Program-made: the position numbers and the translations under genes
Source of the DNA: Candidatus Omnitrophota bacterium
Lineage (GTDB): Bacteria > Omnitrophota > Gorgyraeia > Zapsychrales > JANLHA01
Length of the DNA: 64,000 nt
Assembly (NCBI GenBank): GCA_029560465.1
Contig: JAKQKX010000073.1
Span: forward strand, 79,411 to 143,410
Direction of reading: 5' to 3'
The notes under the pieces: generated by a model
Told to the model about the DNA's origin: nothing
Seen by the model: the letters and a program-made list of their open reading frames with translations, nothing else
Database searches by the model: none
Part shown: positions 4,640 through 64,000 of the stretch, piece after piece
Layout of the letters: each line of letters opens with the position of its first letter
How positions within the stretch are numbered: the stretch's first letter is position 1

Positions 4640-4643
4640 GCAA

Positions 4644-24000: not shown

Positions 24001-24009
24001 AATGCTATA

Positions 24010-24326: not shown

Positions 24327-27300
24327 ATGAATTTTAGATTGGACAAAAAACTAGGTGCCGAAACTGTCTCTAAAGGTATATTAGAGAATAGGTTAATTTC
24401 TGCGTCTGAAAGTATTGTCCAAAATGAATTAAAAGAAGAGTCTTTTAAAAGTAGATTTAAGTCTTGGATTCGGCTTGTTGCCCTTGTTGTTGTTTTAATT
24501 TTCCTTCCAGAGCAGGTTAGCTGGGCTTTCAACTACAATCCCGCTGTTCTTTGGGGACACTCGTCTTCGTCTGTTCAGGTGATTGACTTGGATTCTCCCA
24601 ATCCCCAGGTTTCTCAAGAAGAAATGATGGCGATACAGCTTTCCTCCGGTGTCGCCAATCTTTTGGAACAAATTGAGAACAAAGAAAATGCACAAATTAA
24701 ACTCGGGCTGTCTTCAGATATAAATAATTCTCTTTCTAGTGAGAAAAGCGTTTTAATTTCTGCGAAGAGGAAAATCACTCCGGATTATGTCCAATCTGTT
24801 AAATCTTGGATTCGTAATCCTAATATTCACCCATTTAATTGTGGTGTTTATGCTTTAAAAGATTTGTTAGATGGCAACAAAATTTCAACGTCTTTGGCTG
24901 AAATTGCTGTGGCAACTCTTTCCGTCGATCTTTTAAATAATATTATTGAGCCTGGAGAAAAATTCTTAAAAACTTCTCTTTTTGCGATTGAAGAAGTTGC
25001 CCGCGGATATGGTCTTAATGTTCAGGCCGTCAAGGTTGACACGCAAGACATCCTTTATCTGAAAACTCCGTTTATTGCCAATTTTGGTTCGGAACACTTT
25101 GTGACTGTTCGGTCCGTTGATGCTCAGAATGTGTACTTCTCTGATATTGGCAAGCAACAGTCTATGCCACGAGATCAATTTAAAGAGAAGATCAGCGGTT
25201 TTGTTCTTGCTGTCAATTTGGATCGCCAAGAAGATATGGAATACGAACCCATTTCAGACGCCATGAAGGTGTTTGTTTGGGGTAATAAATGGATAGACAG
25301 ATCAGATGATTTGCCCGGGTTGTTGTCTGGGGCGGATGTTTTTGCTGCTGTAATTTCCATGGTGGTTCAGATTGTCATCGCTTATATTATGGGTGGCCCG
25401 CTTGGAGTTATTATTTCTTTAGCTTCTTCAACTTTTGGTTCTGCCGTAGGGGAAGCGTATTATGTTAACTGTGTGAATGATGGCGGAGATGATTGTGAAA
25501 GCAATGCGTTTATTTTAAGCACAGCTATTACAATTGCTGTTTCAGTAGGTTTGAATTATATGGCCGGGATAGGATCTGAGGCCGGAAATGCAGCGGGCGA
25601 GGCTGCCGCCAGTGGTGGGGAAACCGCATTGGAGTCTACTGCCAGTACCGGCGCAACCAGCTCCCTTAGCACAGCTTTACAAAATGCGGCAGTTGGTGCG
25701 GCAGTTGGTGCGGCTCTCGGGTGGGCCGTTGCGAAGATGACGGGAAAAGATGCTACCAAGGCGGCGCTTATTGGTGGGTTAATTGGAGCTGCAGGAGGAT
25801 TAATTGCTGGTTATGGTGGGTTTGGTGAGGGGATTCAAAGCGCTTGGCAGAGTTTGATAACAAAACTTCAGAATATATGGTCTAGTATTAAAGGGTTTTT
25901 TAATAAGGTTTTTGGCGGCGGCGCTGCATCTACGGCAACGAGCACTACTTCCACAACGAGCATGACAGTGACTCAGCGGTTGTGGGATATTGCGAAGGCC
26001 TTTGCCAAAGGCTTTACGGTCGGGATGATTAAGGCTTATGTTCAAGTTAAAATTGCCGAATTTTTAGAAGAGCATTTGGATATTGATAGTGAAATTTTGA
26101 AATCGGTTTTAGTTGGGTTGATTTCTTCTTTGGCTGCGGATTTGGCGGTGGGTGTTGTTGCCATGGGATTGGACGCGGCCGCAGATGCGTTGTTTGACAA
26201 GCCTGCCAGTGGTGATACCGAGGATTTGGGCTGGCGTGAAATGTTGGGCATGAAAGATGACTCGGAAGCGTCAAAGAAACAATATGCCAATCAGCAGGTT
26301 GAAAAAGCGCAAATTAAGGCAAAGGCTGAAGGGAAGGGGCCGCTTACTGGTGATCAAATTGCGCAAGTTAAAGCGGACGCAATGAGTAGCTATAGTTCTT
26401 TTAAGTTAAATCTAGCAGACATGGGAATGATGGCCCTTCAGCGGTTAGCAGGGGGGATGGGGAGTTTTATATTAAGATATATATTTAAAGATAAATTCGA
26501 CCCAAGCTCCATGATGTCTCAAATTCTTGGCAATTTTGGGTCTTTAATCGGGATGACGCTGTTTAATGTGATCGCTTACGGAGACACTTGGGGAACAACA
26601 TATGATATTAAGAAAGAAAAAGACGAAAATGGAAATGATGTATATACTTATGAAAATGTTGGAACGAAAGAGAACATAAAATCTACTACAACTACAACCG
26701 AAGAGGGGAAAACGGTAACGAGTCATTATTCCGGAACGCATAATGTCACCATGCTTGATACGGATGGTAATCTAGATAACGGTTATGAAAAAGCGTTTGT
26801 TCAGGGATCTTTTTTGGGAACGATTTGGCGGGGTGCGGTTCAAACATTGGTATCGATGTTGTTGGCCCTTGCCCTTTTTGGTAAAGAAGATTTTTCAGAA
26901 GCTGAAGGGGCGGATGGGAAGACGCGAGACAAGGATGAGCGAGCCAAGCAATTTTGGACGTGTAGTTTAATTTTCTTAGGGTCTGTTCTTACGCAGGGTA
27001 TATTCGCATCAATAGCCGGAATGTTTAAAACGTCTGATTTGGCTGCTATAGGAACAAAAGATTATGAAAACCAACAAAAAGCAGGCGGAAAAACAGACGG
27101 GGAAGACAAGCAAAGCATAGGTTCTATTTTCTTGAATGTAACAGGAAATGCTTTTCAAGAGTTTGCTTCTAATTTAGTGGGCGATTGGGTTGGAACAGCC
27201 CCCACTGGCGGAAAGTTTGCTAACTTGTCTTCCTTTGGCACCTATGTTGAATCTATGCAAAAAATGGGCGGCATTACTTTAGATACTGTGTTGAAGGCCC

Positions 27301-30300
27301 AGGAAAAAAGAGAAGAGCTTGAAGAGAAAAGAGAAGAAGCAAAAGAGCAAATGGGTGGATATAATGCTCCGGAGGAGTGGTATGCCTGGGGTTGGGATGA
27401 CAGTATGGCAATTCCAGATGACCTGAAAGACGATGCAGAGAAAACAGATGAAGACATGGCCCAGGAAGCGGGGTTGCAGTTTTTGATTATGGCGGAAGAT
27501 AACCGGGTCGGTTTCTGGGTAGACAATTTTTCCCAGGTGGCGGCGATGTCTGCCATTACTAATTTTAAAAATAGTTTTGAATATGTAGCGTCCGCAATTT
27601 CACACGATTCCGGATACATAAAATTTTACCGGGATTTTCTTGGTTTTACCTTCCGTCCCATTGCCAAAGACGGGTCTTTTCTTGGGAAGAATTACATTCA
27701 ACTAAAAAGAAAAACAATCGGAGAGGATTTTGATCCCGAAAAAGAGGCGACAGAGTTGGTTGCCAAAATAGAAGAAGCAAAGGAAAAAGGCGACATAGAA
27801 GCGGACGGTACCCTGCTTACTATCGAGATGGAAGCCGACGTGGACTCGGCAGAAGATGTGGATGCTTTGGTTAGTTTTATGACGCTGGTAGAGGAAAAGC
27901 TGTCTGGAACAGCGGAAGAATCAAAGGGTGAAAAGGGTGATGTGCTTATTAAGGCGAAAGTGTTTTCCTCTAAAACTCAGGAAGAGGGGGGCACCGAAAG
28001 TCTTATTGCTGGTTACGGATCAGGGGATATAAAGCTAGTAGCCGGTTACGGAGCGGGAAGTCAACAGACAAGTGATTTTATGGTTGTGCCAAGACAACAT
28101 ATTCTTATTGGGGCAAATAGTGCGGACTCCGCAAACTATATTTCTTACAATTTAGTCGGAGCGGGAAATAAGGGAAGAGGCTGGGTTCAGACGGATACAG
28201 CCACAGGGGATGTTTATGAGGGGTTCCTTTCGTATAATCCATATACAGGACAATATTCTTATGATGGCCGGGCGTTCACGGTTGAAGAAGCGAATAAATT
28301 AGGCTTGGATCCTTCTATAATGAAGATTATCGCTAAGAAAGAAGAAGGAGATAAATCAGGAGGGGCGGAAGTAGATCTTTTTGGTGAAGGTTTTACGAAG
28401 TCGAAAGAATTGTCTATTATGGAAACAAGCCCCTCGGAATCGGAAAACTTTGGTGGAGAAGCGCAAACCGGTTACAATCGCTTGGTCGCGCTTGGTTTTG
28501 AGGATTTGGGGTTTGCCATTTATGATAAAGATGCGGGAACAGACGGGCAGGTTGATGGTGGGGGGAGTGTTTATCGTAGAGTTTTACAAGGCGGAGTTGA
28601 AGGGTGGCGGGCTAGGGCAGACGCAAGGGCGGAATATGCTGACCAGATGCGTGAGGCCAAAATTAAGCGTATTATTAACTGGCTGGTTCCGTTTGTGGAT
28701 ATTTGGGGAGAAGGCGAAATTCCGAATCCGGAAAAGGTTGTTTCTCCCGACAAGATGATTGAGGAAACGGTGAGTGCTATGCCGCTGACACAAAAGCAGC
28801 GGCAAGGTCAGGCAGAGGCAAAATTTAAAGCTGCCCAGTCGACGCCGATTCGTGTTAAGAATGCTATGTTAGAGAAGATAAAAGAGTTGGATGCGCAAAA
28901 AGACGCTGATCAGATAACGGAAGAAGCTTATACGACAGAGGTCGCTAAGTTGAACGCTTCCATTGCTAAGATAGATGAGCTTTTAAATGTTGACCCGGAG
29001 CAGGGTGTTTATGACACCTTGGCCACTGTTCCTGTTTATGCTGGTTCTTCTAAGCACAGATATATGCAGCTTTTTGAAGCCGGCGTATTTCTGGGAAATG
29101 CAGAAACAAATAAGTTAATAGGAGAATCGACAACTTCGTATGCAAAATATGAAAACGGAATAATCCAAGGTGGCGTTGTTGGTTGGGTTTTGGGAGATGG
29201 AATTGTTAAAAATCAGGGTGAAGTTACTTCTTTAGTAGGGAAAGCAGAAAATGTCCGCGCTGTTATGAAACAACTGGGTTTGGATAACTTTATTAATATG
29301 TCTGAAGAAGAGAAAAAGCAGGTTACGGATAAATTAATTGCGGCGTTGACGGAACAAGGTCAGGACGGGCTTTTGGCGAGCGTGAAGATTGGCTTTGAAG
29401 GCGGGGCCTTGGTTGCTGATAGTCAATTTGAAGGCGAAGGTGAGACCGACCCGGGAACCAAGCTTAGAAAGAGGATGTCAGCTGCGGATGTTGAACTTTT
29501 GAAGGCGCTTATTGCCACTGCCGCCTTAACGAGCGGATTGTCGGAAGAAGAGAGAATCAAGGCGGTAGAAGAGCTTTCTGTTGCCTTAAATGACGTGCAA
29601 AATATGGGTGATGTGGAAGCCCGGCTTATGGATATGACGACCCAGGATAATCCGATTAAAGATTTTCTGATTAACGCCTTGGAAAACACCTATGCTGGAA
29701 GTCCTACCAAGAATGTTACGATTAATGCTATGAATAAGTCTATGACAGAAGATGGGTGGGATCAGTATACCGCCAAAATGGAGGCGGGAACTAAACTAAA
29801 AGCCAGGGCAGAGGCGATTATTTCCGTTATTGAAGAGGTGGGTTTGGGGGATGTGCTTGGTCTTTCCGAAGAAGAAAAGAAAACCAAGGGCGCGGAACTT
29901 ATTGCCGCTTTACAGCAGGCGGGATTATTAGATAAAGATCAAAAAGTTCCAGACCTGTTTGATGCAGCCACATTGCAATCCATGAAGCTTGCGCTTGGAA
30001 CAATGTTGTCTGGCGGGGTTGCCGATGCAATTGTGGCAGATATGTTAAATCATCAGATATTGAATACCCTTATTAATGTGTTTACCAGCGGCCTTTCTGA
30101 AGAAGATAAAAAGAAGGCCGCTGTTTCTTTGCAGGGTGTGGAAACGATATCTGCTCTTAAAGATGCGGTCGTGAATTTTGCCACGAAAGAACCCCTGGCA
30201 GATGTCATCCGCGCTAGTGAAATTGATGATCTTGTCTTCAGTTACCATGGGGCGCTTGATGATGCCGGGAACGTAAGGTCAGATTTTGCTTTTAATTTGG

Positions 30301-33300
30301 ATGCCTATAATCCTGCCGCAACCCTAAAATCCCAGGCAAATGTATTCCTCCCCGGAATTGGTTTAGCACAAATATTAATCAGTGCTTTTGGCGGCGAATT
30401 GAGCGAAGAGGAAACGTCTTCACTAGTGCAGAATATGGCGAAAGTTTTTATAAATGGCCTTTCAGAGGTGGATAAAAAGAAGGCAGCTAGTGCTTTTAAA
30501 GATGTGCAAACGTTTGATGAACTTAAAAATGCGATTATGGGGTTGTCTTCGGGTGTAAGAAAAATTACCTTAGATGAAAATCTTTCTCCGGTTGACCCTG
30601 GATCTGGGCTTATGGTTCGCTCGATTTCCCAGGGAGGGCAGCTCTCTTTGATGAATTTATTACAGGGGGATGTTTTCTCCTCCAAGCTGAAGGGCCGGGC
30701 AGACACCCTTATGTCTATTATTGAAAGTGTCGGGTTGAATGATCTGGCGAACCTCTCTTCAGAGGATAAAAAAGCCAAGAGAGATCAGTTGGTCACCGCC
30801 CTGAAAAATGCCGGGCTTTTTGAAGGAGAAGGAAATGTTTCTTTGTTTGACCCAGCGGTTTTAAATGCCTTGGTTGCCTTGGGTTTTATGTCGCCCGAAG
30901 CCGTTGATACCATAGCATCCGGTATTATGGATACTGAAATGACGAATTTGCTGGTGAATGCGGTGGTGTCTTCCGGATTAACCGAAAGAGACTCAGAAAA
31001 GGCCGTTGCTGCTGTTAAAGGGGTGAAGACCATTGAGGAACTAAAAGCCGCCACAGAAGGTTTTTCTGGTTTTGAGGGCACGTCTTCTTTTATTGCGAAG
31101 GCTATTTATGGGGTTGATTCCCGCACCACGGAAGAATTGCCAAACGGACAAACCCGTGAAATTGCTAATATATCAGGCGGGGTCTTTTCCACCATCGCCG
31201 CTAAGTCTGAGGATGCGCGGTTGTCTAATGTTGTGAGCCTGATCACCTCTAACAAAATTTCAAACGAAGAATTGGAAGCCGCTTATAAAGCAGATTTACC
31301 TGTTATTAAAGGCGATAATTTAAATGACGAGCAAATAAAAATAAATGAAAGGAACGCTTTGGTCAATTCCCTTGTGGATCAAATGGAAGCCATGGGGATT
31401 TCTTTAATTGATTTTGTCAAAGCGGTTCAAACAGAAGGAACTTTATCCCAGCAGCTCTCCACAATGACTGTTGATACCAAAAAGCAGGCTTTGGCCGTTG
31501 CTTTGGATACAATTAAGGCGGAAAAAATAACGGCGGATGAACTGAAATCAGCGTATGAAGGCAAAGCTTCTTCTAAAGATAATAACGGTGTAGAACAAAA
31601 AGAAAGCAGCAGAACGAAATTAATAAAAGCCATTGTTTCTGATTTAAGAGACGTGGGAGCGACTTTTGCCGATGTGGCGGGGCTTTTGCAGGTTGCCGAA
31701 GGCCAAGATTTAAATCAATCTATTGATGCGAAAGCCCAGGAGCTTTTTACAAGGGATTCCTCGGTCTTCAAGGCCGCAGGGTTGATGACCAGTGGTAGAT
31801 CTTTCATTAATCAAGAAGGGCAATTGCAGTTTTCAGATGCATCTGTTTTAGGAGATTATATCCGCTTGCGGCAGGCTGGTGGGCAGGGTGGAACGGAACA
31901 GCCAGAGGGTTCGGTTGTCCGAAGCAAGGTTCTTGTGGGAGGGGTTGCTGATCTTTATACCGCGGATATTGGCGGTGCGCAGTTCCTGAAAGACACATCC
32001 TCCGGCGTATTTGAGATGAGTCCTTTTGTTATCCGTATGGATGAATTTGTTGCCCGTAATCCTAAAGTTGCGGTTTATGGTGATGAATGGGGCGCTCATC
32101 TTGCCAATGATAAAATAGAAGTGAAAAACATGGTTCTTAAGATTTCGGAAAAAGACGGAATCAAAGCCATTGATCATTATCTCACAGGACAAGAAGGCCA
32201 AATGCGTTATACGGGGGACACGCATTTAGCGGATATTATTAAGATTTCAAAGAAGGACTTGGTTAATGATGAAAAGTTGCAGCAGGCGGTAAAATATTTG
32301 GGTTTAACCATACCGGAAGAAGGCGATTTTTCTCTAGAACAAAAAGTGCAAATTCAGGGATATCTTGATGGGTACAGGGTGTCTATTTCCAGCAAGTCGG
32401 GTGATTTGGGATCTGAAGAGTGGGCTTCTAAAGTTCCTGCTGATGAAATATTGCAGAAATTCCTTGGCGGGAGCGGCATGCTTACGGATATGCCGGTTGT
32501 GACCCAGTCTGTGATTAAATACGGGGGAAATGGTGTAGAAACCATAATTGAGCAGAAAGAAATTAAGTTTGAATATAGCGATGACTCGGCTTCCAAAAAA
32601 AGCCGGCTGTCTATTGATGAAGACGGGTCGTTGCGGGTTGTTTTGGCGTCTCCGTATTCCATGCTGAAAACTGAAATGAAAGTTGATGGGGAAACAGGTG
32701 TGCCTTATATAGAGAAGATGAATGAGAAAGACCCTGTTTACCTTTTGGCCAGAATACCCGGGTTGGGGAATGAAGTCCTTGCTCCGAATAATCCTGGTGA
32801 GCAAAATGATAAAAAGACCGTAAGCTCCTATGATGTTATGCTCACTAATATTATAAAAGTCGGCGCCGCGGAATATGCTGGGCAAATGATGGATGTGTAT
32901 GCTGGCAACATCAATGGCGATATTGAAACCGAAACATACACGGCCAAAGGGAAAGATGGGGCTGTAAAGGAGACATACGCGGCTCCTCTTCCGGCAGATA
33001 AGAATGACCGTTATCGGAGAATCAGTTTTCTGGCGATGCCGTTCCTATACGGGAATTTTGGCACTAAAGATAACCCGGTAGGCATGAATCAATCCCTCCA
33101 TAGTTTTTATATTGAAAACAATGTTTCTGATATGGTGGCCGGAGCAACAGCGGCATATTCTACGCAAGATCCAACCGAAAAAGGGCCTGGAACGGTTTCG
33201 ATGAATTCCAGGCAAAGAATTTTGTCCAGGGCCGGGCTTTTGCCGATTAATCGTATTTTATCATCAAACGGCACTATCGTTTCGCGTTTTCTGGGGAATG

Positions 33301-36300
33301 GGGCTTTAACTATTATTGACGGCGTGGTTTCCACGGTGGATGGAAGTCAAACATACTTGATTGCGGAAAGCGTCCCGGGCGTAGCAAGGGATTTGAAAAA
33401 AGGTGAAGAGTTTCAATTAGATGTTTTGGAATCTTCGGATGATCGCGATGGTATGAAGCAGTCTTATGCGTATGATTATAAAGTGACAGATACCTGGGAG
33501 CAGATCGGCTTCGAAGAAGGCGGGAGACAGGAGTATGTGGCAGCGCATCGTTATACCGGACGCACTAACGATGAGACAAATAGGGGAAAAATATTAGTGC
33601 TGGGCGCCGCCTCTGGATTGATGACAGCGAAAGGGAAAGAAAAAGGGATCCCTGAATATCTTAAATTGAACAAAAATGGCGCCACGGTTTATGGGGATTT
33701 TGAGATATTCGCCGATGAACAAACCCCGGCATGGGTTAGAGAGCATTACAAAGATGTCGGCGGCGTTATTACCTTCCAATGGGCGGCTGATGGAGATATT
33801 GCGAGCAGCCGCATGAAGGCTTCGGAAGGGGATATGTTTGTCGAAGAGAATATTTTTAGTGTTTATAATATTGATAAGTCGCTCGCTGAGGCTGTTGAGA
33901 GTTTAGGCGGGTTGGAGAGTTTGGATGCGAGGGATGCCGATAAAATCGTGGCGGCATTGAAAAAAGCAGGCGTTAAGGGTGTAACTAAGCAAGGCTTACA
34001 ACTTGTTATGCGCGGAAATTCGGCGGGTATTGAAGCGAAGCTGAAGAACGCCGGTATTAAAGTAGAAGAAGGTAGCGTACAGGCCCCCGCTTTAACGGGT
34101 TCTGGTTTGTATGAATCGGCTACAGTGTATTATGATTCGGTCTTAAAAGGATTCAAGCACCGTGCGACAGATTTTGTTGTTGATGGTAAAAATATAGAGT
34201 CTGGACATGTTTTTGCTTTGGGTCAGCCAACGGCCGAAGGAATATATGTTATGACAGGGGCGACTCATATCCCGGGAGTTGCCGGAAGCTATTATGCCAT
34301 TGGTCCGACCAAGAAAGAAGCCGGGTTGCCTACACATTTTTATTTTTATGATTCTGAACGTGAATATAAAGCAGATGGCAAGCTGTATAAATCCCCAGAT
34401 TCAAAAGGTTTTGTGGGTATTACGATTAGCCCGGACGGCCAGAAGGAAGGCGTTAATACAAAAAGCATGTATATGCAGGTTGGCGCTGATGCCTCGGTTG
34501 GGTTGGGCAAGTCGTATATGAGGGGTTTATTCGACTTGGCTGCCAAGAGGGAGCAGTTTGATGAGAGCAAAAATATAACAGCAGAACAGGCAGTGGCGAT
34601 TGAGAACGGGATGGAGGCTGCGTTTCAAGACTATTCTAAATTAAGTGATGCCGAGAAACAGGGCATGAGTTTTATGGATTATATTAAGCAAAAGAAAATG
34701 CCCGCGAGTTTTTATCTTTCCTTAATTGCCATGGCAGAGGATGCGGAAATTAAAGAGTCGCACGGGGATTGGCCGGAAATGCAAAAACGGTCGCAGTCAA
34801 AAACCCCAACTTTTAAATCCGAGTTAGCCAATAAGTATTTTGGCAGCCTTTCTCCTGAAGCTAAAAAAGAACTTTTATTCAGGGCTTGGAAACGAGAGGA
34901 AGAGAGGCAAATCCCGCTGTTTTTGGCTAATGACGAATATAAAGAGAATTTTGGGAGTAATGGGTTTACTCGGTTTATTGCCAAGGTGGGTTTAAGACAG
35001 TACCAAGCGCAGGAGGCGCAGTCTGCGGCTTATACTGGTGATTTGATTGAATCGTTAGAGGCAGCAGGGGTAAGTACTATAGTAAACGGGATGACGAGTA
35101 AGGAAGAGATTGCTAAAAGCAATGATTTTCTTATTAATTCGGTTTTAGCTCCGAAACAAACTGAATTATGGCATGGAACAGGAGCAAAAGGAGAGAAATT
35201 TAATATTTATGAGAAACTTTACGGCGCGCAAAAACATGTGGCTTATGTTGATGCGGCGTTTGAAGGAGAGATGCGTTTTATTAGGGACGGAACCTGGGGC
35301 CCTGCTAATTTGACTTTTGGCATAGGAGACAAAGACGGGGATGGCATCCCAGAGGTCTTGGCTCGTATTATTGGCGGATCAGTGGACGGCACCCCGGCAG
35401 TTTTCCTTACGGATGATTCTGGGCCGCAAGGCGGCTTGTTAAGAGATAGATTTGTACGAACCTCTTATATTGATGGAGCATTACAAGTTACTAAGAGCGG
35501 TGGATGGGCGTTTAATGTGATTTCTGGGAGTGCTGTTTTACCTAGTGATTATGGGACTTTGGCGAAAACAGGCGGATTGAACCCGAATTCTTTGATAACC
35601 GGTTTGGGGCTTTCTGATTACAGGGCTGGCCTGATCAATGGTGCAGGGAAAGCTGACTCGCTTCAACAACTATCCCCGGCACAGTTGTTGAAAGTCATGT
35701 CTCTGTTTTCTCAAAAAACGTTAGTGACGGATCTCCTTACACCAGAGGAAGTCGGTAAAGATAATAAATATGTTGGCTCCATCGTTGCTCAATTTGGAGA
35801 CACATCCAAAGGATTTTCTTCATTGATGCTTGAATCGGCCGGGTTTTTCCAGCTTGTTTCCACATTAGGAGAAGGACAGATAGTCCCTGCGAATGAAGCT
35901 CTTGCAGCAGAGGCTGTTTATGACTTGCTTTTGAATGACGATTATGGGGGAGGGTATCAATATTCTTTTCAACAAAATAAGCTTGGCGCTATTATTATGC
36001 CAACCACCCTTTCATCGAAACAAGTTGTGGATGAACTTAAGGCACAATCCAAAGAAGGGGTTCTTGTTAAGTCTGAGACCGGCATGGTTTTTCTTGTTTC
36101 CCCGGAGGAGTTTAAGAATGGACAAAATAGGTATGAAAAGGGGAAGAAAAAAGGAATAGTTGTAAAAGATATAAAGACAGGAAAGGTCGCCATAATTGAT
36201 AATGACGACATGATGACCGCGTCAGATTTTTATGTCAATGGGGTAATTAATGACTATAGAATTGGCTCGGAACGCGTAGATGGAAAATGGAAAGAAATTC

Positions 36301-54300: not shown

Positions 54301-57300
54301 GTTTGTTGGTTTCTTATTCTCGTGAAGTTAATGATAAGCCCGAGCGGGCGATTGAGGCTAGGGCGGAAATCACCCGGGCAAAGACGTATATTAAAGAGAA
54401 CTATATCGCCTCCGCCGATGATTTGGTTAAATACAGCGATGCTTTGGACATATCGCCTAAGGGCCAGGCTTTGGTTGCGGCTTATACCAGGCTTCGTGAT
54501 GATGAAATTCACATTACTTTGCCGCGCATGGCTGATGTCGCTAAGATTTCCAACACCGAAGCGCAGGAAATATTCGACGCAGAAATCCGGCCGGTAATAA
54601 AGATTGCTGAGCAGAAGCTCCCCGCCGATCAGGAAATCATGGCGATTATGGATAGTGCGGAAGCGGATGACTTGGAAGAAAAGGCTTTTGCGAGCCTTGA
54701 GAGCGATATCCGGGACGCGGTTAATAAAGGCGAGTTTGCGACGTATGATGATGTGGTGGCTGTCACGCAGGGCATGACACAGTCGACGAAGCACCGGGTG
54801 TTGGGTAAGCTGCAGAGCTGGCAGTTGTCCGGCAGAGATTTTAAGAATATCCAAGAGGCGGCCACGCAAGCCGAGGCCGTGGCGCCGCGGCCAGTCCAAG
54901 TGATGGGGCATGTGGTCAGAGTTCATAATCAAGTTAAATCGTCAAAGTTGCAGAATTTACAGTCTAACGACGATTTGGTGCCCAGGATCCAGGAATTTTA
55001 TGCCGGGATTGAAGGCTTCCACTTAAAAGGTAATTTAAAAGGGCTTGAAAGAGCGCACATAGGCAATCAGCGGGCTATTTTCAGGCAACTTAATAATGGC
55101 GGAGTTGTCCTCCTCGGCGTAGAAAACAGGGGTGACATTGATTATGGTGCTTATGAAAAATTCACTCCGGCTAACATGTCAGACGAGGAGTTGCTGGCGA
55201 AGTCTTATGAGTTAACAGAAAAAGTTTCGTCTCCGATTGAATCTCAGGATAGAATTGCCGTGGTTGTCTCCCGGGATTCTAAAGATATTGATTATGAAGA
55301 TCTCCGTACCTTGACCGGCGCAGTAAATAATGCGTCCCCAGATCAGCGCTCTGTGGTTTTGGCTAAGATTTCCGATGTGATGAAGTCGAATCCCAAGATA
55401 GAGAGCGAAATTCGATCGCAGGGTGAAGTCGTTCTTGATGTTCAGCCGCCGGCCGGGTATAGCGAACTCGTGACTCTCACGCCGGAACAGGTGCAGAATC
55501 TTTCTCCGAAGATGGCAAACTTGAGTCCTTACCGTACCGAAAGAGCTATCTTGGCGGTTGTGGCGCAGGATCCGGTTGTGTTAAAAGGTGACGGGACTGC
55601 TTATGATGGAAACAACCGCATTATTTGGGCGCAAAAAATGAATGCGCCGTTGAAGGCATACGTTCCTAAGGGGCAGAAGGAAATGCTTTTGGCGTCGTTA
55701 TCTCAGTCCAGCAGAGATAAGGGAACAGCCAGCAGCAGTCCGGTTGCGTGGCAATTAACGCAGAGTCCGGCTCGTCAAATGCCGTTAACTTCCCAGGAAA
55801 GAGCGCATTCTTTAGAAACAAAAGAGATCGTTAAACGAGGCGGTATGTTGCAGGTGTCCTCTTCTGTTGTGGCACGGCCATCGCCCATGGCTATGGCGCA
55901 GGCTCAGCCGGGCGGTATGATGCAGGTTTCTTCCGCGGTTGTCGAAAGGCCGTCACCGGTGGCTATGGCGCAGGCTCAACCAGGTGGATTGATGACCGTC
56001 TCTTCAACGGTTGTTAAAGAACAACAACAGTTTCCGGCGATATCCGTGCCGACCATAGAATCGCCAAAACCGTTTGAAGTGACAGCGCCTGCGATTATTG
56101 CGACACCGGAAGCCCCGGCCGTTACTTTGCCGATCACAACAATGCCGGTTTTCATGCCCTCTCCTTTAAGTGAAGCGCCGCGGGTTGAGGCTCGGCCGGC
56201 TGAAATAGCCTCGGCTTCGCGCAAAGAGGGCCGTTCTTCTCGTCAGAATAGTGAGTCATCAAGCGCAAAACCGGAAAAACGCGGTGGCATGATGCAGGTG
56301 TCCTCTTCTGTTGTGGCACGGCCATCGCCCATGGCTATGGCGCAGGCTCAACCGGGCGGCATGATGCAGGTTTCTTCCGCGGTTGTTGAAAGGCCGTCAC
56401 CGGTGGCTATGGCGCAGGCTCAGCCGGGCGGCATGATGCAGGTTTCTTCCGCGGTCGTTGAAAGGCCGTCTACGCAGATGGAAATAACTCAGCCGGGCGG
56501 CATGATGACAGTATCCTCTTCGATTATTGAGAAACCTCAAATTGCCAGTCTTGAGGCCGAAACATCTAGACCGTTTGAAATGACGGCCGTCGCTCCGGCC
56601 CTTTCAGCGCCGGTATTTCCAGTTCTATCTTCTCCGTTAAGTCAGAGCCTTATGCAACAAACAGAACAACCTTCCGTCCAATCTGCTCAGGCGGCTGATT
56701 TTATGGACAGGTCGGCTATTCAGCAGCAAGAACGCTTATCCGTTCCGTCCCAAACAACGATGTCTGGTGTTCGCCCGACGCCATCACCCGTGCGTAATCT
56801 TAATCTGACCAGGCCTGAAATGAACTTTGCGGCTATTCCTAAACCGGAAAAACGAGGCGGGATGCTTACGGTGTCTTCTACTGTTATTGACCGCCGGTCA
56901 TTGCCGGTTTCCGCCCAAGCCAAGGTTTCCAATCCTGAAGAAGATGCGGGCTTGTCTGCGGCAGAGATGGTTACTGAATTGCCGGTTAGTGCGCCCTTGT
57001 CTGCACCGATGCCGGTTCTTTCTGCTCCTATCGTTCTTCCCGCGTTCACAGGTGGCCCGTTTGCTTCTGAACAGCGGACTTTGACTACGGAGATTTCAAA
57101 AGATTTAGCGCAAGCAAATACTTATTATGATGCTCGCAGCCAGATCCAGCAGGAACAAGAAGGCGAGATACAAGATTTGTCATTCTGGGACATCACATCT
57201 GGTGCTATGAGCCAGGCTGTTTCCTTGGATGAGAAAGTCCGATTGGCTCATGATGCGAATAAATCCGTTGTGTTGTTTGAGCAAGGAAGAACCCTTCCTG

Positions 57301-60300
57301 AATTGTTGTCTGCCGCTAATAAGACAGTTGCCGAGACATCCCGGCCAGTCTATGTTTATGTTCCGACAATGGAATCCATGGAAGTGGAGCGTGTCGCCAC
57401 TCAGATGGGGATAAATTTACCGAAAGAGACTTTGGGGCAGATTTCACAACTTATGGCTGAAAAACCGCTTGTTTTGGGCGGCTTGGATACTTTAATCAGC
57501 GCTGTGCCGGAATTGGAAAAATACGATATCGTGCTGGTCAGGAATTTCATGATGGCTCTTCAGCAGGCCAGAAAAGCCCCGTTTGTGTCTTACCAGAAGA
57601 GCCTTGATGGAGAAATAATTTCTCAACGATTAGCGTTTGAGCAGTTGCCTAAGAATTATCCGATAGTTTTGTTAGGAAACGACGAGACCCTTAAACCGTC
57701 TTCCGAAGAGTTGCGTAAATATATCGTTGCCCGTAAACCATATTTGGATAATGAGCTGGTTCAGCATATTTTGCCGACAACAGAGCGGCTTCAGTTGGCT
57801 AAAGGGGAAATTTTGGAAATTGCACCGGTGTCGTCATCCATTTCGACAACTGCGGCAGAGAAAGAAGGGGCGGCGATTATTTATGCGGCCAGCCTTTCGG
57901 TTTCTGAGAAGATGGGTGTGATCGATTTTATCGGAAGATATCCCGAATTTAAAGATGGGACAACGAAGGTTGAGATAATTCGCGGGAAGGATCTTGAGTC
58001 AAAAATTTATATGGCTGATGACACGGGGAAGACCCGGACGGTTCTTATTCCCGAAGATGTGTTCTATAGTGTGATTTCTAACCCGGTTTTGGGAGAAAAG
58101 AATCAGCGGATTGGCATAGAGAAGAGCGACAGGGTTGATCTGGCCATGAAGACCGGGAAATATGCCCATTCGTTGCCATCGGAATATCATACAGTTGATT
58201 TAGGTCAGGTTTTGAAAAAGCATGACTTGACCTCCGGGTTGCAGATTACCGATGAAAATCCGCTTTTGGTTGCTTATGATCGCCGCGATTTTGACGTAGC
58301 TCAGGATCAGATGGAGAATATTTTGGTCTCTTTGGCGAAGACGGTTGATGTTTCCGATTTATCGCAGATCACCCGTCTCCAGGTTGTTCCTTCTGACATG
58401 AATCTGCCGGCGAAAATTATGTTGACGGACATGAACAAGCAAGGACAGCCCAAGACATTGATTTTGGCACAGTCTTTGATACAGAATCCCCAGGAGATTC
58501 AAAACGCTTCTTTGATGGTTGATAGTCGGAGTTCTATCGTGAGATTGGCAGAAAAGCAACGGGCAGAGACGATTGCCCGGAATCAGATTGATCCGGACGC
58601 AATTACGGTCGTACGCCTGCCGGGCGGGGACAGGGCTTATATCGAGAAGAATTTTGTTAGATTTGTCGACGACCGTGGCCGGGTCCGTAAACAGCAGATG
58701 GAGTTTAAGGGCGTTAATATTATTGAAGTGGGGCGCATTATTGCCGGGTTGAGCGATCAGCAGCGCAGGAGCTTGTACTTGATCGAGGCGGACAAAACAG
58801 CGGATATTTATGTGGATAAGGCTTCTGGAGAAAAGTGGCTTCCGGTTTCAGTTCATCTTGGTAGCACGAGATATTTGGCTTGGGCCAGATTTGATGAAGA
58901 GATGGAGTTGGCTGTGCCGGTTAACGGAAATCAATTGATTTACGCTGAGAAGATGGTCATGTCCGCGGTCAATGAAAGTGGCCGTCCACAGTTTAAGCCG
59001 GTCGGGTTTGATAAGCGCATTGATTTCGATACGTTAATGCCCGGCGCCGACTATTCGGTGGGTGACTATGTGGAATCGTTAACAAGGCAATTAGCGATGG
59101 AAGAAAACATTTCTATCGATTTTGTCAAAATTGATGATTTCAATTATTTTGTTAAGCCCACAGGCGTTCGGATTATTAAGAATGATAAAGGCCAGACGTA
59201 TTTGATTCTTGGAACCGAGTATGTTAAGGCCCAGAACGACCGGATCGCAGAGGCCCAGAAATATGATTTGGCCATCACAGATCCGTTAGGGATGTATCGA
59301 GCATTTATCGAAGAATCTCAGGCGAAAGAGCTTGAGGTCAAAGATGCGTTCGGTGTTTTTGTTGTGGCTGTGACGAACAAAGTCGGTCAGATTTTAACCA
59401 GAGATTCGAGATCTGGTGGGCAGGATCAAATCGCGTTGAAAGATATTCCGATCCTTTATACCACATTAACCGGGGAGCAAATTATTGTGGCTTCTACCAA
59501 GAAGTCTGATATTGAGCAATATCAGTTTGATATTGCTATTGATCGCGGCATCACGACACGTAAGGAACAGTTGGCCGAACCGAAGGTGTTCGAAGCAGTT
59601 CCGAGTTCAGCTCCTGTGACCACACTGCCGTTGTTGCCGGGCACAGATACTTCAATTATGCCTCCGATCGGCCTGTTGTCTCAGGCTGTTCCGGTTCAGG
59701 CAAGTACGACAGAAACAGTAGAAACAGCACAGATTGAGAAATTGGCTTTAGCCAGTATCCCGATTAGCGATGAAGAGCTTAATGGGCAATTATCAAAGGT
59801 GGGCAGTACGGTTGAGATGCTGGATATAGAAACAAATGAGGTTGGAAGAATCGTTTCTAACGTTCAGTTCAAGAATCCGTTCAGCGGTCAAGAAGTCCGG
59901 TTGGCCAGCGTAGAGATGAAGAATGGGGATGTCCAATCGTTTACTTTTGATGAGTTTAAGAAAAAGAATATTCGTATTGTTCGTCCTTCTGCCGAGCAAC
60001 CTTTGTCAGAAAAGACTAAAATCGCTTCGGCTCAAAAACAGCTTTCAAAACCGACTGCGGTTGAAATTCGACCGGCAGCTTCACCAGTACGTAATTTGCC
60101 GTCGACTGCTACGGAACGAACATGGGTAGATGCTCAGGCGACGAGAAAAGACCGGATGAAAGAACGCCAGTCTGGCGGGTTGTTAATGATGTCGGCTATG
60201 GTTATTATGAATCCGGCTGACGCGGCTGTCCAGGAAGGACAGTTTGAAGAGGCTAAAGATTCGTCATCGCCGATTATGGTGGCGTTAACCAATCCGATGG

Positions 60301-63300
60301 TGTTGCCGGAAGATGCTAGGGCTGGCGGTGTTCGAAAAGACAGCGTAAAGTATGTTGAGGTAGCCCGAGTGTCCTCTTCTCTGAAGCAGGCGGCTCCCGC
60401 GAAGATCACGGAAGTTCCTATGTTGGCAAAACAAATGCCGAATATAGCCACGATAAGTAGTTTGTCTCTTAATAATCGTGCAGCGTATGATATTTTAAGA
60501 ACCGCCATGACGCAGACCATGAATTCTCGGCAGGATAGAGCGGACTTATCTAGGGAAATGAACACTATTTTGGCAAGGGCGGCTCAGGAAGGGCAGCGAG
60601 TCATTAGCCCCGAAGGCTATCCGTTAACTGAAAAAGCCTTACAACAGTTATCAAAGCTCAAAACTAAAGAAGATCTTGCCGCTTTGGTTGGGAAAGACGG
60701 AGCTGAAAGCCTGTGGGATCAATTAAAAGACGCCTTGAAGATGCTTTTCGGCGGAGAAATCAAAGCGGATGAAAAAGAAGAGAGTGTTCACCTGGCTAAA
60801 GTCGACCAGGAGGCCATGCAGGGTGAAGGGGTGTTGACATCACCACAATATATAGAAGAAGGAACGGTGTCGACAGAAACAGGCGTTCTTAAGTCTGACG
60901 TGACTGTATTGAAGGAAGCTTCGAGGGCTCCTCCGGAGGAAATGAAAGCCGATGTAACGATTGCTGAAACAACGGTTAAGAAAGAGGATCAAGAAGCAGC
61001 TCCGACGCTTGCAACAGCGCCTCCGTTAGCGCCGCCGATTGTTAGTCCGGAAACATTGGTACCTCAATTACCAGCACAAACAGCCCCGTCTTCACCGATA
61101 TTTGTGCCTGTATTGCCTATTGCCGCATTTACTCTGGGTAAGGCGACGACCTTGCCGTCTAACCAAAAGAATCCGATAGAAGGACGTAAAGAAACCGGAA
61201 CAAAGGGCATTCCTGTTACGAGTATGCCATTTAGTTCCTCAGTTCCTGTTGAGGAAGAGCCTGTGCCTGGAGGCGGATCAACAGGGCCTGTGAGTGGCTC
61301 TACGAAAGCCAAGACTGCTTTAGTTATTGCGTATGTCAGGGATATGGCAGCGAATAAGGGAGCTGTTGCCAGCGCTCCGGTTGTTAAACCCGAAGCGAAG
61401 CGACAGCATGTAGATTTAAGTACTGACAAAGAATCTAAAAAGAATTTTAGAAGTTCTGGTTCTAGTCCTACGCCGTGGGGCGCTGCCGAGACTTCCTCAA
61501 GTCTCCAGGCAGGAAAATCCGAAGAGAGGACAAGACTTGAACGTGTTGTAATGGTTGTAACGGTTGGTGTGCGTACGGCTGAAACGATAGCAGGTAATGA
61601 AGAGTTAAAAACTAATTGGGTGAGAAACGCCAATCGCGGTAACGATAACGCGAACGGTGTAAGCAGCGCAATCGTTGAATCGGCTCGTGTGACCATCGCT
61701 GCATCGAAAGCGGTCACATCAGAGTTAAAAACTGGTTGGGTGAGAAACGTCAGCCGTAGTGACGATAATACGGTTGGTGGTGGCAAAGAAATCGTCAATA
61801 TTGTAACTAGCAGTACGGTTCTCTCGGCGAAGACAGAAGCCGAGGATGAGTTAGAGACTCGATGGGTGAGCGCCGATCGCGAAGGCGTTAGCGCGATAGG
61901 TGTAGAAGGTGCATACGCCAAAGCCGGTTCTTTGAGAACGTCTGGTATTAATGGCTTAGCTGCCATCAATTGGTTTGGCCTCTTCGGAGGTTTTGCCAAG
62001 GCAATTAAGGCTGTTTTGACTGGATGGTTACAGAGAATTGCTAGATCTGGGTCTGGTAACGGGTCTAGAGAGGGTACATTACCGGAAGCTGTGCCTGCAG
62101 CCAGCTATAGCCTTGAGGGTTCTATCGTCAAGGTGGCTGAAGGAATATTCGTGGCTGCCAAGTCTACGCTGACGAAAGTTGGTGAGTGGCTGAAGCAGTA
62201 TGCGAACCGTGTTGTAACGATTCTTAGAACGTACGACAGCAAATGGACTAATCGCTCTGTACTTATCATTGGCGTTGTCGAGGATACGACTACAAGTGAA
62301 GGTGTGCATGCATCTGCGCTTGGAAGCGAATCTGGTAGCATGGCTGGTGATAGGTCTGGTACACATTCAAATGATGTGTTTGGTGTGTCCAGTGTAATCA
62401 GTAATGGATATGACTATCTGTATAGTCGTATTGATTCCATTGCTGGTGTTGAAACAGTTGTATCTCGTTCTGTTAAAGGTAGTGCTGACAGATTAGCGGT
62501 ATTGCTTAGTGCCAATGCTGGTAGTGTGGCTGACGTAACAAGCGATTCTGGTGTTCTGTCCAACAATGCTCTCAGGGGTTCGGCTGTAAGTGTTGCTGAT
62601 GTCTCTGAGAAAGAGTCCTTTGGTGCGCTTGATCAAGAGATTGGTCAAGGATATGTAGCTGTTGATGTAAGCTATATCAAAGGTTTGCGGTTTGATGGAT
62701 GTGTAGCTTCTGTGCTCAGTAATGGGTATGGATTAAGCACATTGGCATCAACTTCGATTCTTGGCGCTTTGGTCAGTGATGATCTGAGTTCTAAGAATGT
62801 GACCTTTGTGTTAGGTTATGTGAATAATCTGACTGCTACATCTAAGGTTGCGTATGTAGGTGCTATAAAGGGTATTGCTGGTAAGGCTGCCATATCGTTA
62901 GTTGCGCTGAAGCAGTTACATGAGGTTGAGGCGTTAAGCGGTTCTGTGGATCTGTATAGTAGAGTTCTTGGAGTGTCTGCCTCTATAAGGGTAAGTACTT
63001 CCAAGGATAAAGCCTTTACGCAAAAGCTTGATCGAAGTAACGTTCAGGCCATTGTTGCTGAAGCAGTATTAACTGAAGGTGTGTTGGCTGGAGAAGGTGT
63101 CCTGGCTGAAGGAACTGAAGGTGTTCTGATGCCGGTTGAAGCTATATCCAGTCCGGTTCTTAGTATACAGCCTGAAAAGGTCGAAGGTGCTAAGAATGCT
63201 GCCTTTGGTGTGAGGCTTGGTCAAGAAATTGATCAGGTAATACCTGCTGAAGATGCGTTCAATGTATCTGCTGAGGTTGTGCTTAGCAGCGTTAATGAAT

Positions 63301-64000
63301 TGCTGAGAGCTTGGATTGCGAAAGCGATCGAAGTGATTAGTGGTTCTGAAAGCTTGTTGAGTAAGGTTCTTGGTGTGTTGACTGCTGGTAAAACAGCAGA
63401 AGCCGCCGAGAATAATGCCTTAGTAGAGAAGCTTGATCAGAATGTCGCTCAGGTTGGCAGTAGTGCGAAGTCTGACAAAGGCTCTGTTCGTATACAGTAT
63501 GATTATGTGAAGGAATTGCTTGGTGCCGAAGTTGTGGATGTGAGAACGGCCATAAGCGGTTCTGGATTAGTTTATACTAAAGATCTTGGTGTGTCGGTAA
63601 ATACGGCCGCTAAGAGCAATGCTGTTAGAACAGACAGAGATGCGGATGAGAATGCGGTAACTGTTACAGACGATAGAAGCACCTTTAGAACTGTTCTTGG
63701 GTCTCGTTGGATGGCTCGAGAAGGTTCTTTGAGTGCTGAGAAACCATTGGCTGCTACGGAAACTCCGATTAGCACGCCTGTATACTTTGTTGTTCCGGTT
63801 TCATTCTCTAAGAGCATTAGCCTCTTCATTCAAAACTTTAAGCGAGTAAATCTCGCCAAAGCCATTCGTGTTGTCTCTAAAGACATATTTGAGACATATG
63901 TCTTCATAAGGACAGCTCTTGCCTTAAACAAGGCTAAATATGTCATCTCTCCGAGAGCGGCAGGATTAACTTCTGTTGCCTCTACTACTATTTCTAATAC
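24327..64000 (+). CDS. giant multidomain protein, 3'-truncated by window edge (at least 13,224 codons)
   Basis: ATG at 24327 follows an in-frame TAA at 24309-24311. Frame (position mod 3 = 0) checked at ~24.8, 25.3, 52.1 and 53.4 kb and is continuous. The track shows no long + ORF here only because no stop occurs before 64000. Only short antisense or alternate-frame shadow ORFs are listed across 39.7 kb. Uniform coding character throughout. Confidence 0.85.
   Translation, partial: [13224 protein letters not shown]
24780..25230 (+). other. C39/papain-like cysteine peptidase-like domain inside the giant protein
   Basis: '[17 protein letters not shown]' (Cys in an xxCGxxALxxLL context) and, downstream, '[14 protein letters not shown]' (HFVxV His motif, then Asp). 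Cys...His...Asp order and spacing resemble peptidase C39 bacteriocin-processing domains. It follows the N-terminal TM anchor (~24465-24520). Confidence 0.45.
29250..31800 (+). repeat. in-frame tandem protein repeats (~170-180 aa unit, 'LSEEEKK...LIAAL..G' signature), at least 4 copies
   Basis: Recurring blocks '[26 protein letters not shown]', '[26 protein letters not shown]', '[27 protein letters not shown]', '[26 protein letters not shown]', '[26 protein letters not shown]' read from the translation. Confidence 0.6.
48700..49560 (+). other. protein-kinase-like (APH/Kdo-kinase-type) domain with non-canonical catalytic loop
   Basis: '[15 protein letters not shown]' (~49406-49450) aligns to the PKL catalytic loop H-G-D-L-H-P-G-N, but with His in place of the catalytic Asp. 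'VKFIDWKKL' (~49480-49505) aligns to the IDWE/DFG-equivalent metal-binding motif. Confidence 0.4.
50600..51250 (+). other. class I SAM-dependent methyltransferase domain 1
   Basis: Motif I '[14 protein letters not shown]' (~50698-50740). Acidic residue at end of beta-2 'IGIDPQ'. Motif IV-like '[17 protein letters not shown]'. Confidence 0.6.
51270..51830 (+). other. class I SAM-dependent methyltransferase-like domain 2
   Basis: '[30 protein letters not shown]' (motif I + beta-2 Asp, ~51328-51420) and '[11 protein letters not shown]' (post-II). More degenerate than domain 1. Confidence 0.45.
51945..53050 (+). other. GGDEF (diguanylate-cyclase-type) domain 1 with ~250-aa internal insertion
   Basis: '[18 protein letters not shown]', '[25 protein letters not shown]' (metal-binding D), '[13 protein letters not shown]' (GGEEF at 52182-52196). 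The C-terminal GGDEF helix '[19 protein letters not shown]' appears only at ~52985-53045. The insert contains duplicated 'LNDR(E/D)FVQ...' and 'M(R/M)QMPLAELPY(E)(Q/K)L(S/D)RWV' units. Confidence 0.7.
53190..53870 (+). other. GGDEF domain 2 with internal insertion
   Basis: '[16 protein letters not shown]', '[24 protein letters not shown]', '[13 protein letters not shown]' (GGEEF ~53418-53432). Insert with '[15 protein letters not shown]' and '[25 protein letters not shown]'. C-terminal '[21 protein letters not shown]'. Confidence 0.7.
55800..56900 (+). repeat. Met/Gln-rich in-frame tandem repeats (~25-aa unit '[24 protein letters not shown]') including a near-identical ~140-nt duplication
   Basis: About 7 copies of the unit. 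The nucleotide segment ~55841-55980 is almost identical (about 3 mismatches by hand count) to ~56299-56438. Direct reading. Confidence 0.7.
61560..63700 (+). repeat. C-terminal in-frame tandem repeats ('ELKTxWVRNxxRxxDN' ~40-aa units, then longer 'GS(V/E)(D/S)L(Y/L)S(R/K)VLGV...' units)
   Basis: Three consecutive ~120-nt units at ~61590-61900 ('agagttaaaaactaattgggtgagaaacgcc' / 'agagttaaaaactggttgggtgagaaacgtc' / 'gagttagagactcgatgggtgagcgccgat'). Two longer related units at ~62930-63060 and ~63340-63450. Confidence 0.55.

Follow-up and report, generated by a model that had tools for sequence, protein, structure and literature searches.

The DNA considered here is a stretch of 64,000 nucleotides (nt), hereafter the window, from a genome of the uncultivated Candidatus Omnitrophota bacterium (assembly GCA_029560465.1, contig JAKQKX010000073.1, positions 79,411 to 143,410 of the forward strand). 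From position 24327 to its end, the window is occupied by a single open reading frame (ORF) without a stop. This giant ORF very probably represents the first 39.7 kb of a giant gene of Omnitrophota, belonging to the published class headed by a C39 peptidase and placed directly downstream of an operon similar to the Tad and type II secretion systems (T2SS). The ORF is a genuine gene, because it has been assembled independently, it is under purifying selection with respect to its closest relative, and its codon-position signature is uniform.

Extent and support of the open reading frame

The frame is free of stops from 24312 to 63998 on the forward strand, which amounts to 13,229 codons in total and to 13,224 codons when counted from the ATG at 24327. 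An in-frame TAA at 24309 precedes this ATG. The window contains no N and has a GC content of 45.7%. Over the same stretch, the other two forward frames carry 729 and 1,100 stops, and the computed probability that the frame is open by chance is about 1e-326. The largest rival ORF in the span is an antisense shadow of 346 codons at 61067-62104, without a Pfam match. A preliminary description of the window, made from its letters, had reported a single uninterrupted ORF starting at this ATG and had considered the other ORFs of the span as short shadows; both statements hold. Its landmarks are also right, namely, the C39 cysteine Cys172 (NCGVYALKD) at nt 24840, a transmembrane (TM) helix at amino acids (aa) 329-356 (about 25.32 kb), and GGEEF motifs at nt 52182 and 53418. 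The features recognized along the ORF are listed below.

24327-64000, forward: giant ORF, 5′ part, aa 1-13,224; no stops, uniform coding signature, independent assemblies, and a colinear relative
24327-27671, forward: conserved N-terminal module, aa 1-1115; 60-73% aa identity to the orthologs at loci L009, L010, and L016
24465-24524, forward: first TM segment (TM1) or signal anchor, aa 47-66; Kyte-Doolittle hydropathy 2.08
24624-25286, forward: C39 double-glycine-type cysteine peptidase, aa ~100-320; PF03412, E 4e-10
25311-27026, forward: multi-helix membrane region rich in Gly-zippers, aa 329-900; 6-8 candidate TM helices, Kyte-Doolittle peaks 1.6-2.4
28914-31400, forward: degenerate helical repeats with a "GLSEEEKKK" motif, aa 1530-2358; self-BLAST identity 21-41%
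31764-33116, forward: conserved unannotated core, aa ~2480-2930; five-ortholog alignment with many invariant residues
37176-39131, forward: weakly hydrophobic Gly-rich cluster, aa 4284-4935; Kyte-Doolittle 1.3-1.65, only aa 4705 at 1.6
49278-49505, forward: kinase-like (EcKL/APH-type) segment, aa 8318-8393; PF02958, E 1.4e-4, borderline at 21.8 bits against a cut-off of 22
50703-51089, forward: S-adenosylmethionine- (SAM-) dependent methyltransferase, aa 8793-8921; Methyltransf_25/_31/_11/_23, E 7.5e-11 to 5e-8
51945-52262, forward: GGDEF domain 1, aa 9207-9312; E 1e-19 to 1e-28, GGEEF at aa 9286, no RxxD I-site
53178-53519, forward: GGDEF domain 2, aa 9618-9731; GGEEF at aa 9698, RDSD I-site five residues upstream
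55824-56534, forward: 72-nt (24-aa) in-frame tandem array, including a 186-nt duplication (array ~55.8-56.9 kb); sequence self-comparison

The coding signature extends along the whole ORF. The fraction of purines at codon position 1 is 0.62-0.72 in each of the thirteen 3-kb segments (13/13), and neither GC content nor skew shows a break. The stretch 14594-33625 of the window was recovered at 99.97-100% in six other metagenome assemblies (JGI 3300010355 and 3300009780; ENA ERZ761564, ERZ27257431, ERZ795059, and ERZ27257428), and the first 9.3 kb of the ORF, to nt 33625, are thus covered independently six times.

The closest relative, a congeneric metagenome-assembled genome (MAG), carries the gene on contig CAZAXH010000003.1 (348 kb); Logan SRR15237810 contains the identical locus. 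Over aa 1-3120, this relative shows 92.3% identity with a single gap (loci L011/L012), and it is colinear with window positions 51291-64000 (locus L007). The ratio of nonsynonymous to synonymous changes (dN/dS, Nei-Gojobori) with respect to this relative takes values of 0.18 (aa 8989-10944) and 0.125 (aa 10503-12508). Its frame remains open for at least 3,333 codons past the window end, up to the edge of L007, which agrees with the earlier claim that the ORF passes the edge of the window.

The same description had pointed to internal near-identical repeats as an assembly risk. One such repeat is indeed present, a 186-nt unit at 55833 and 56277 with 89% identity, and it is the sole one in the ORF; the risk was overstated, being small and in frame. 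The unit belongs to the 24-aa tandem array, whose copy number differs in L007, and since units of 72 nt preserve the frame, a collapse of the array would affect copy number alone. Self-BLAST shows the protein to be otherwise nonrepetitive, with minor repetition in the GGDEF duplication, the GLSEEEKKK helical repeats, and the 24-aa array. As for homopolymers, the ORF contains just one G7 run, at 39799.

The head: signal anchor, C39 peptidase, and membrane region

The N-terminal module (aa 1-1115) is the only part of the protein that can be aligned in all orthologs; beyond it, identity decreases to 24-35% or is lost. It begins with a basic tail (aa 1-46) before TM1, which is followed by a nearly invariant SWAFNYNP motif where W66, A67, F68, Y70, N71, and P72 are each conserved at 90% or more. 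The C39 domain comes next. In 20 sequences, its catalytic residues C172 and H257 are invariant, and D273 is conserved at 90% or more. The AlphaFold2 (AF2) model of this domain reaches a pLDDT of 77-93, and its best Foldseek match is LahT150 (6mpz; E 3.9e-5, TMt 0.71), followed by the peptidase domain of PCAT1. The C39 peptidases of LahT150 (6mpz) and PCAT1 (4ry2) have the same fold and the same Cys/His(/Asp) catalytic residues. Because the domain follows a signal-anchor helix, it is probably extracytoplasmic.

After the peptidase, the region of aa 329-900 contains the conserved C382/C390 pair and a weak Gly-zipper_YMGG match and is modeled by AF2 as all-helical with low pLDDT. Kyte-Doolittle analysis gives 7-9 TM candidates within aa 44-900; further along the window, all candidates are weak.

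In PCAT/AMS transporters, the C39 domain precedes ABC TM and ATPase domains, whereas the giant protein is without these and its C39 is placed after a signal-anchor helix. No ABC_membrane or ABC_tran domain was found in the giant ORF with Pfam and NCBIfam, and the NCBIfam PCAT models match the peptidase part only, at 22.5 bits against a cut-off of 853. The absence of ABC transporter domains after the C39 rules out the giant protein as a PCAT.

The body and its domains

The combination of TM anchors, some repeats, and enzymatic domains proposed from the letters is real. When the protein was tiled against Pfam, as the preliminary description had suggested, the matches were those to C39, the kinase-like segment, the methyltransferase, and the two GGDEF domains. 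The last three kinds form an enzyme island at aa 8300-9750. Apart from these three kinds, no match to the body was obtained with Pfam or NCBIfam tiles, and a search of PDB sequences returned GGDEF only. The GGDEF profile matches end at position ~106-113 of 161 and are followed by an insertion, and only some of the PDB alignments span the whole domain.

Conservation of the core at aa ~2480-2930 extends to five lineages. A profile of its five orthologs gave a best E of 0.25 against PDB sequences. A phmmer search of aa 2401-3600 against 1.84e9 representatives returned a 72-aa self fragment only; this negative is weak because the libraries seem to be without giant ORFs, the known orthologs L009 and L010 being likewise not returned. 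A single-sequence AF2 model of aa 2430-3200 was uninformative (pLDDT 30.7) and was discarded. The weakly hydrophobic cluster at aa 4284-4935 is a possible second membrane-associated region, as judged from hydropathy.

The continuation of the gene can be followed in the closest relative. In L007, strong TM helices cluster between +214 and +650 aa past the window end, with Kyte-Doolittle values up to 2.3; after them come an SLT lytic transglycosylase domain (E 8e-21) and then a weak Peptidase_M23 match (E 0.0065). As the TM cluster stands between the enzyme island and the SLT domain, the relative's sequence predicts a membrane-crossing block which separates the nucleotide-dependent domains (GGDEF, methyltransferase, and kinase-like) from the peptidoglycan-cleaving domain.

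Host, relatives, and full length

The proteins encoded near the giant gene in the window match exactly those of MAGs named "Candidatus Omnitrophota bacterium" at NCBI, the longest contig with these proteins measuring 159,928 bp. With the N-terminal 1,200 aa as query, 19 C39-domain homologs were found at 33-46% identity. A source name is available for 13 of them, and 12 of these are Omnitrophota/Omnitrophica and one is labelled Elusimicrobia. The NCBI label of the closest MAG, "uncultured Planctomycetales," is an imprecise PVC label.

The gene of the closest relative is at least 16.9 thousand aa (kaa) long and at most about 22.2 kaa on its contig. A syntenic ortholog of the L016 lineage has at least 23,934 aa and runs off a 127-kb JGI contig (gene table), and two further syntenic orthologs, within contigs of 3.36 and 3.35 Mb, were called at 74,508 and 60,566 aa (gene tables). 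The latter two are orthologs: their Tad genes and leader are 71-77% identical in nucleotides to those of the window and their first 1,115 aa are colinear; over these residues they are 60-63% identical, and over the remainder 24-35%. The L016 lineage retains 73% identity over the head, and its body can no longer be aligned. From these alignments, the family appears as a conserved head of ~1,100 aa on a very fast-evolving body. A search for homologs with the far end of L007 and two metagenome scans, aimed at the end of the gene, found nothing.

The last segment before the next TM cluster behaves differently from the rest. Window 61671-63998 (aa 12449-13222) has a nucleotide identity of 92-94% to L007, higher than elsewhere, despite a dN/dS of about 0.6; the pattern over these ~800 aa points to a recent exchange or to selection that is relaxed or diversifying.

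Some assemblies (L008, L013, L014, and L018) show the giant gene in pieces. In L018 (JGI 3300009777 Ga0105164_10000021), the frame changes exactly at a G9 run (13740-13748), where a 1,251-aa C39 gene gives way to one of at least 4,628 aa. The consecutive ORFs of L008 overlap in the manner expected of frameshift errors. In L014, the gene ends at 10,337 aa; in L016, from the same species, it runs to at least 23,934 aa. Such splits could be due to sequencing errors or to slipped-strand switching. To read a standalone C39 gene with a separate giant gene in distant relatives as gene fission is unsafe in view of the G9 run of L018 and the frameshift-like overlaps of L008.

The upstream Tad-like operon

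All the genes between 3.6 and 23.6 kb are on the strand of the giant gene. Their order is PPIase (peptidyl-prolyl isomerase), RcpC/CpaB, secretin-TonB_C, TadZ-TadA fusion, DUF192, an orphan with a helix-turn-helix (HTH) match, seven pilins, three orphans (571, 1,348, and 147 aa), TadB, and TadC.

3626-9821, forward: PpiC/Rotamase_2 PPIase, RcpC/CpaB, secretin with TonB_C fusion, and TadZ(ParA-like)-TadA(T2SSE) fusion ATPase; family matches
12837-15259, forward: seven Flp/TadE-like pilins with the G/xxxxEY class-III signal motif; Flp_Fap E 1.5e-5, Class_IIIsignal E 1.9e-7
15280-21806, forward: three conserved Cys-rich orphans of 571 aa (3.3% Cys), 1,348 aa (4.0%, 54 Cys), and 147 aa (6.8%)
21842-23625, forward: TadB-like and TadC-like platform proteins; two T2SSF matches, JGI names "tight adherence protein B/C"

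Nine related and four distant loci show this same order, the distant Omnitrophota with the same operon having C39 heads just 25-37% identical. The operon shares with the Tad/Flp type IVc pilus RcpC/CpaB, an RcpA-type secretin, TadZ-like, TadA, TadB, and TadC proteins, and Flp and TadE-like pilins. It differs from it in the fusion of TadZ with TadA, the TonB_C domain on the secretin, the insertion of three Cys-rich orphans, and the giant gene placed after tadC. The two fusions are unusual: the secretin with a C-terminal TonB_C is encoded at 5536-7479 and the TadZ/CpaE-like ParA ATPase fused to a TadA/T2SSE ATPase at 7659-9821, both on the forward strand. A further difference is that no prepilin peptidase (TadV/CpaA) was found among the ORFs of the window; its gene may lie in another part of the genome. 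The three Cys-rich orphans are without a Pfam match and are syntenic in all relatives, and the 571-aa orphan has a pilin-like N-terminus (GQSGTELAIFG).

Comparison with known giant proteins

Giant genes of Omnitrophota have been described with an N-terminal C39 near signal peptides and with GGDEF, methyltransferase, and occasional SLT domains, and their upstream locus contains gspD/E/F-like genes, rcpC, a Rotamase_2 PPIase, and genes with class-III signals (West-Roberts 2023, 10.1101/2023.11.21.568195). The present gene shares with the Archaeovorin type the phylum, the N-terminal C39 beside a signal/TM segment, and the GGDEF and methyltransferase domains; the SLT domain is shared via the continuation of the closest relative. 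A mostly unannotatable and poorly conserved body is common to both. The upstream set is also the same, consisting of a Rotamase_2 PPIase, rcpC, a gspD-like secretin, a gspE-like ATPase, two gspF-like genes, and genes with class-III signals. The size by which the Archaeovorin type is defined is an ORF of at least 25 kb, and the present one has at least 39.7 kb in the window. The peptidase near the N-terminus of that type can be C39 or S8.

There are also differences. Unlike the Archaeovorin type, the protein has no glycosyltransferase, glycosyl hydrolase, or NUDIX domain in its first 13.2 kaa, and no sequence related to its body was detected beyond its own clade. TM segments are numerous along Archaeovorins; in the window, the predicted TM helices fall within the first 900 aa, apart from weak candidates, and the next strong cluster comes from L007, just past the window end. 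In Archaeovorins, a divergent SecA_DEAD helicase domain is usually located towards the C-terminus, and small PilZ genes follow immediately downstream, positions which here lie beyond the window.

The long proteins of Omnitrophota have also been catalogued. They number 5,761 with at least 10 kaa, reach up to 147,155 aa, and occur at least once in 93.8% of complete genomes (Nielsen & Lui 2026, 10.64898/2026.06.07.730766). The rarity of proteins above 10,000 aa among prokaryotes, stressed in the preliminary description, is therefore not applicable in this phylum. The same work distinguished a cluster whose architecture consists of PF03412 only, and 13 of 14 giants were flanked by secretion or pilus genes (10.64898/2026.06.07.730766). 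The present protein resembles that cluster, by architecture only, in having at least 10 kaa, C39 as the main or only Pfam signal, a membrane anchor, and Tad/T2SS genes at its flank; the catalogue comes from groundwater and Baltic genomes.

The type of the Archaeovorins is a 39,678-aa protein of Velamenicoccus archaeovorus LiM. It was described with 42 predicted TM helices, and its peptides increase three-fold in prey-attached cells (Seymour 2023, PMC10066038). In the same organism, the Tad complex was found to be co-expressed, and a "coat" was proposed (PMC10066038).

A last comparison concerns the giant repetitive surface adhesins of other bacteria, such as RTX adhesins of type I secretion (T1SS) and the "Think big" giant genes (Reva & Tummler 2008, cited by West-Roberts 2023). 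Extreme length and a probable surface role are features in common. Such adhesins are also cysteine-poor, as is the giant body. The giant protein differs from them in being essentially nonrepetitive and in having an N-terminal multi-TM anchor, cytoplasmic-type enzymes, and no RTX or Ig-like repeats.

The size of the gene is striking, but the class is already described in the literature. Giant genes of Omnitrophota, whose functions are putative, account for several percent of small genomes. The locus adds a well-supported example from a clade present in several independently assembled metagenomes, and its relatives, from 92% down to ~25% identity, make a comparison possible. This comparison yields a conserved C39/TM head, one unannotated core, and a TM cluster between cytoplasmic-type enzymes and a peptidoglycan-cleaving domain. 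The current picture of a machine for predation or attachment, with a link to a Tad-like pilus, is unchanged.

Proposed mechanism and alternative explanations

The mechanism proposed here has about equal chances of being right and wrong. The head would fix the giant protein in the inner membrane, with the chain threaded across it at least twice. The island of GGDEF, methyltransferase, and kinase domains would remain on the cytoplasmic side, and the segments past the next TM cluster would be extracytoplasmic, exposing the cell-wall-degrading domains. The C39 peptidase may well process the giant chain or a partner, and the GGDEF pair, judged from its motifs, probably supplies a local signal in the form of cyclic di-GMP (c-di-GMP). 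In attachment to and attack on host or prey cells, the giant protein would work alongside the neighbouring Tad-like pilus, as proposed for V. archaeovorus.

A number of points weigh against the class assignment and the mechanism. Independent support is limited to aa 1-3120 and to aa 8989 onward, and aa 3121-8988 represent a residual uncertainty. The Pfam and NCBIfam searches found none of the glycosyl hydrolase, glycosyltransferase, and NUDIX domains in the first 13.2 kaa, and the SLT and M23 matches belong to the relative and not to the ORF of the window. SecA_DEAD is absent both from aa 1-13,224 and from the 3,333-aa extension in L007; the end of the gene, any such domain, and any downstream PilZ genes lie beyond the window. 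Over the last ~800 aa, the dN/dS with respect to L007 is about 0.6. The side of the membrane on which the body lies is decided by the number of TM helices in aa 329-900, which come from hydropathy only, and a Cys-free body fits an exported segment better than a cytoplasmic one.

Among the other explanations, the best surviving one is that the product is a polyprotein, a giant precursor cut by its own C39 into many functional proteins of ordinary size. This is unlikely to be the whole story, and it is not exclusive of the membrane-threaded protein, being compatible with it. The possibility was raised for the class by West-Roberts 2023 (10.1101/2023.11.21.568195) and finds support in the conservation of Cys172, His257, and Asp273 within a double-glycine protease fold and in the scattering of separate enzyme domains over a long unannotated sequence. 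However, the body contains no match to L..EL..I.GG or to EL..[ILVM].G[GA], and the looser [ILVM].GG occurs 28 times against ~23 expected from composition. Since double-glycine-type sites are not enriched in the body, self-cleavage of the giant chain by C39 is unsupported.

It is quite improbable that the body is instead exported unfolded, possibly via the Tad-like secretin, to serve as an extracellular coat or adhesin or to deliver enzymes into the prey, where they would use host nucleotides. What speaks for such a secreted product is the presence of one Cys in 12,324 aa, a scarcity kept in all lineages examined and typical of proteins exported unfolded, together with the operon for a secretin, an ATPase, and platform proteins directly upstream and the "coat" proposed for V. 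archaeovorus (PMC10066038). Against it, the GGDEF, SAM-methyltransferase, and kinase domains require cytoplasmic substrates, and the strong TM cluster between the GGDEF island and the SLT domain of the relative argues for membrane threading and not for wholesale export. Tad systems, moreover, assemble pili and are not known to export chains of 10^4 aa.

A chimera, or a repeat collapsed or expanded during metagenome assembly, would be another source of a long ORF. The window does derive from a metagenome assembly, aa 3121-8988 are outside independent confirmation, a 186-nt repeat with 89% identity exists, and the gene is in pieces in some relatives (L008, L013, and L014, and L018 at its G9 run). 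Such an artefact is nevertheless largely refuted and is regarded as very improbable. Six independent assemblies agree on the first 9.3 kb, colinearity with the relative holds at both ends, no break is seen in the uniform coding signature or in composition, and the repeat units of 72 nt are in frame. A chance fusion leaving 13,224 codons open is implausible, and orthologs of 60-75 kaa are found on Mb-scale contigs.

The least credible alternative of all is a decaying or untranslated frame held open by compositional bias, which would agree with the lack of a detectable family for more than 90% of the ORF and with the very fast divergence of the body among relatives, but is contradicted by a dN/dS of 0.13-0.18 across ~3,500 codons, by conserved catalytic motifs, by a core (aa 2480-2930) kept in five lineages, by the strong avoidance of Cys codons in this frame and not in the others, where they make up 2.8-6%, and by the giant-ORF peptides published for V. 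archaeovorus (PMC10066038).

Cysteine depletion of the body

The body (aa 901-13,224; window 27027-63998) contains one Cys in 12,324 aa, and 108-224 would be expected from the 19 neighbouring proteins. The other four of the five Cys of the giant protein are located in the head, as C172 (catalytic), C382, C390, and C879. TGY codons account for 2.8-6% in the other two frames of the ORF. The depletion is found in all lineages examined, including distant ones, with 0-2 Cys per 2,200-7,900 aa (L007, L008, L009, L010, L011, L013, L016, and L018). The large orphan before TadB, on the contrary, is Cys-rich (3.0-4.7%) at every related and distant locus. The word "cysteine" is absent from the West-Roberts 2023 and Nielsen & Lui 2026 preprints, and the Cys-free body, like the structured leader with terminator and the 50-codon upstream ORF described below, may be a new observation.

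The leader and the upstream ORF

The 460 nt upstream of the giant start are conserved and contain two elements.

23972-24160, forward: conserved leader with a promoter-like site (TTGCAT-17-TATAAT), a 12-bp 5′ hairpin, the invariant AAAGAGGGCCAACA, and a terminator-like hairpin
24166-24318, forward: 50-codon upstream ORF (MAKIIKIIGGAEKKLNSFLLNSFSLFQKIPSTCIRGHQLAHCFVNNLVNF), ending 8 nt before the giant ATG

The terminator-like hairpin, with its U-run, is at 24124-24160, about 170 nt before the giant ATG, and the leader also has an A-tract. The promoter and 5′ domain are 88-94% identical among loci, versus 77-88% for the adjoining coding sequence, and compensatory changes occur at four base pairs. 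The leader is present in every locus of the close clade and absent from the distant ones. A search of Rfam for c-di-GMP or other riboswitches in the leader gave no match at E <= 1. The leader is a candidate attenuator, riboswitch-like element, or small RNA.

The upstream ORF has the same length in six lineages and ends 8-10 nt before the giant start. In these lineages, a GG near residue 9-10 is invariant and the C-terminal half is conserved. Its substitutions show no bias towards the third codon position, and as a protein it has no database match and no Pfam match. A canonical double-glycine leader can be discarded, as the GG comes after only ~8 residues and a conserved hydrophobic pattern is missing. 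The upstream ORF, whose translation is putative, could be a coupled ORF, a small partner protein, or a part of the RNA leader.

These elements may be combined in a tentative proposal, which is considered fairly unlikely to be correct. The promoter, a structured RNA of ~155 nt ended by the terminator, and the upstream ORF would gate expression of the giant gene, by riboswitch-like control or attenuation and by translational coupling; separately, the absence of Cys would reflect an unrecognised constraint on export or folding. If true, this would be a previously undescribed cis-regulatory switch for a gene of 10^4-10^5 codons. Side observations of this kind could inform the regulation of such genes and the handling of their proteins.

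Other features of the window

Between DUF192 and the pilins, the operon contains a 567-aa orphan (10730-12433, forward) with a weak N-terminal match to HTH_32 (E 0.097). It is located in a low-GC stretch (0.37-0.39 at 10-14 kb) and may be an insertion derived from a mobile element. A tRNA gene (1202-1275, forward; RF00005, 64.8 bits) lies between the 3′ end of gyrA and a carbon-nitrogen hydrolase gene.

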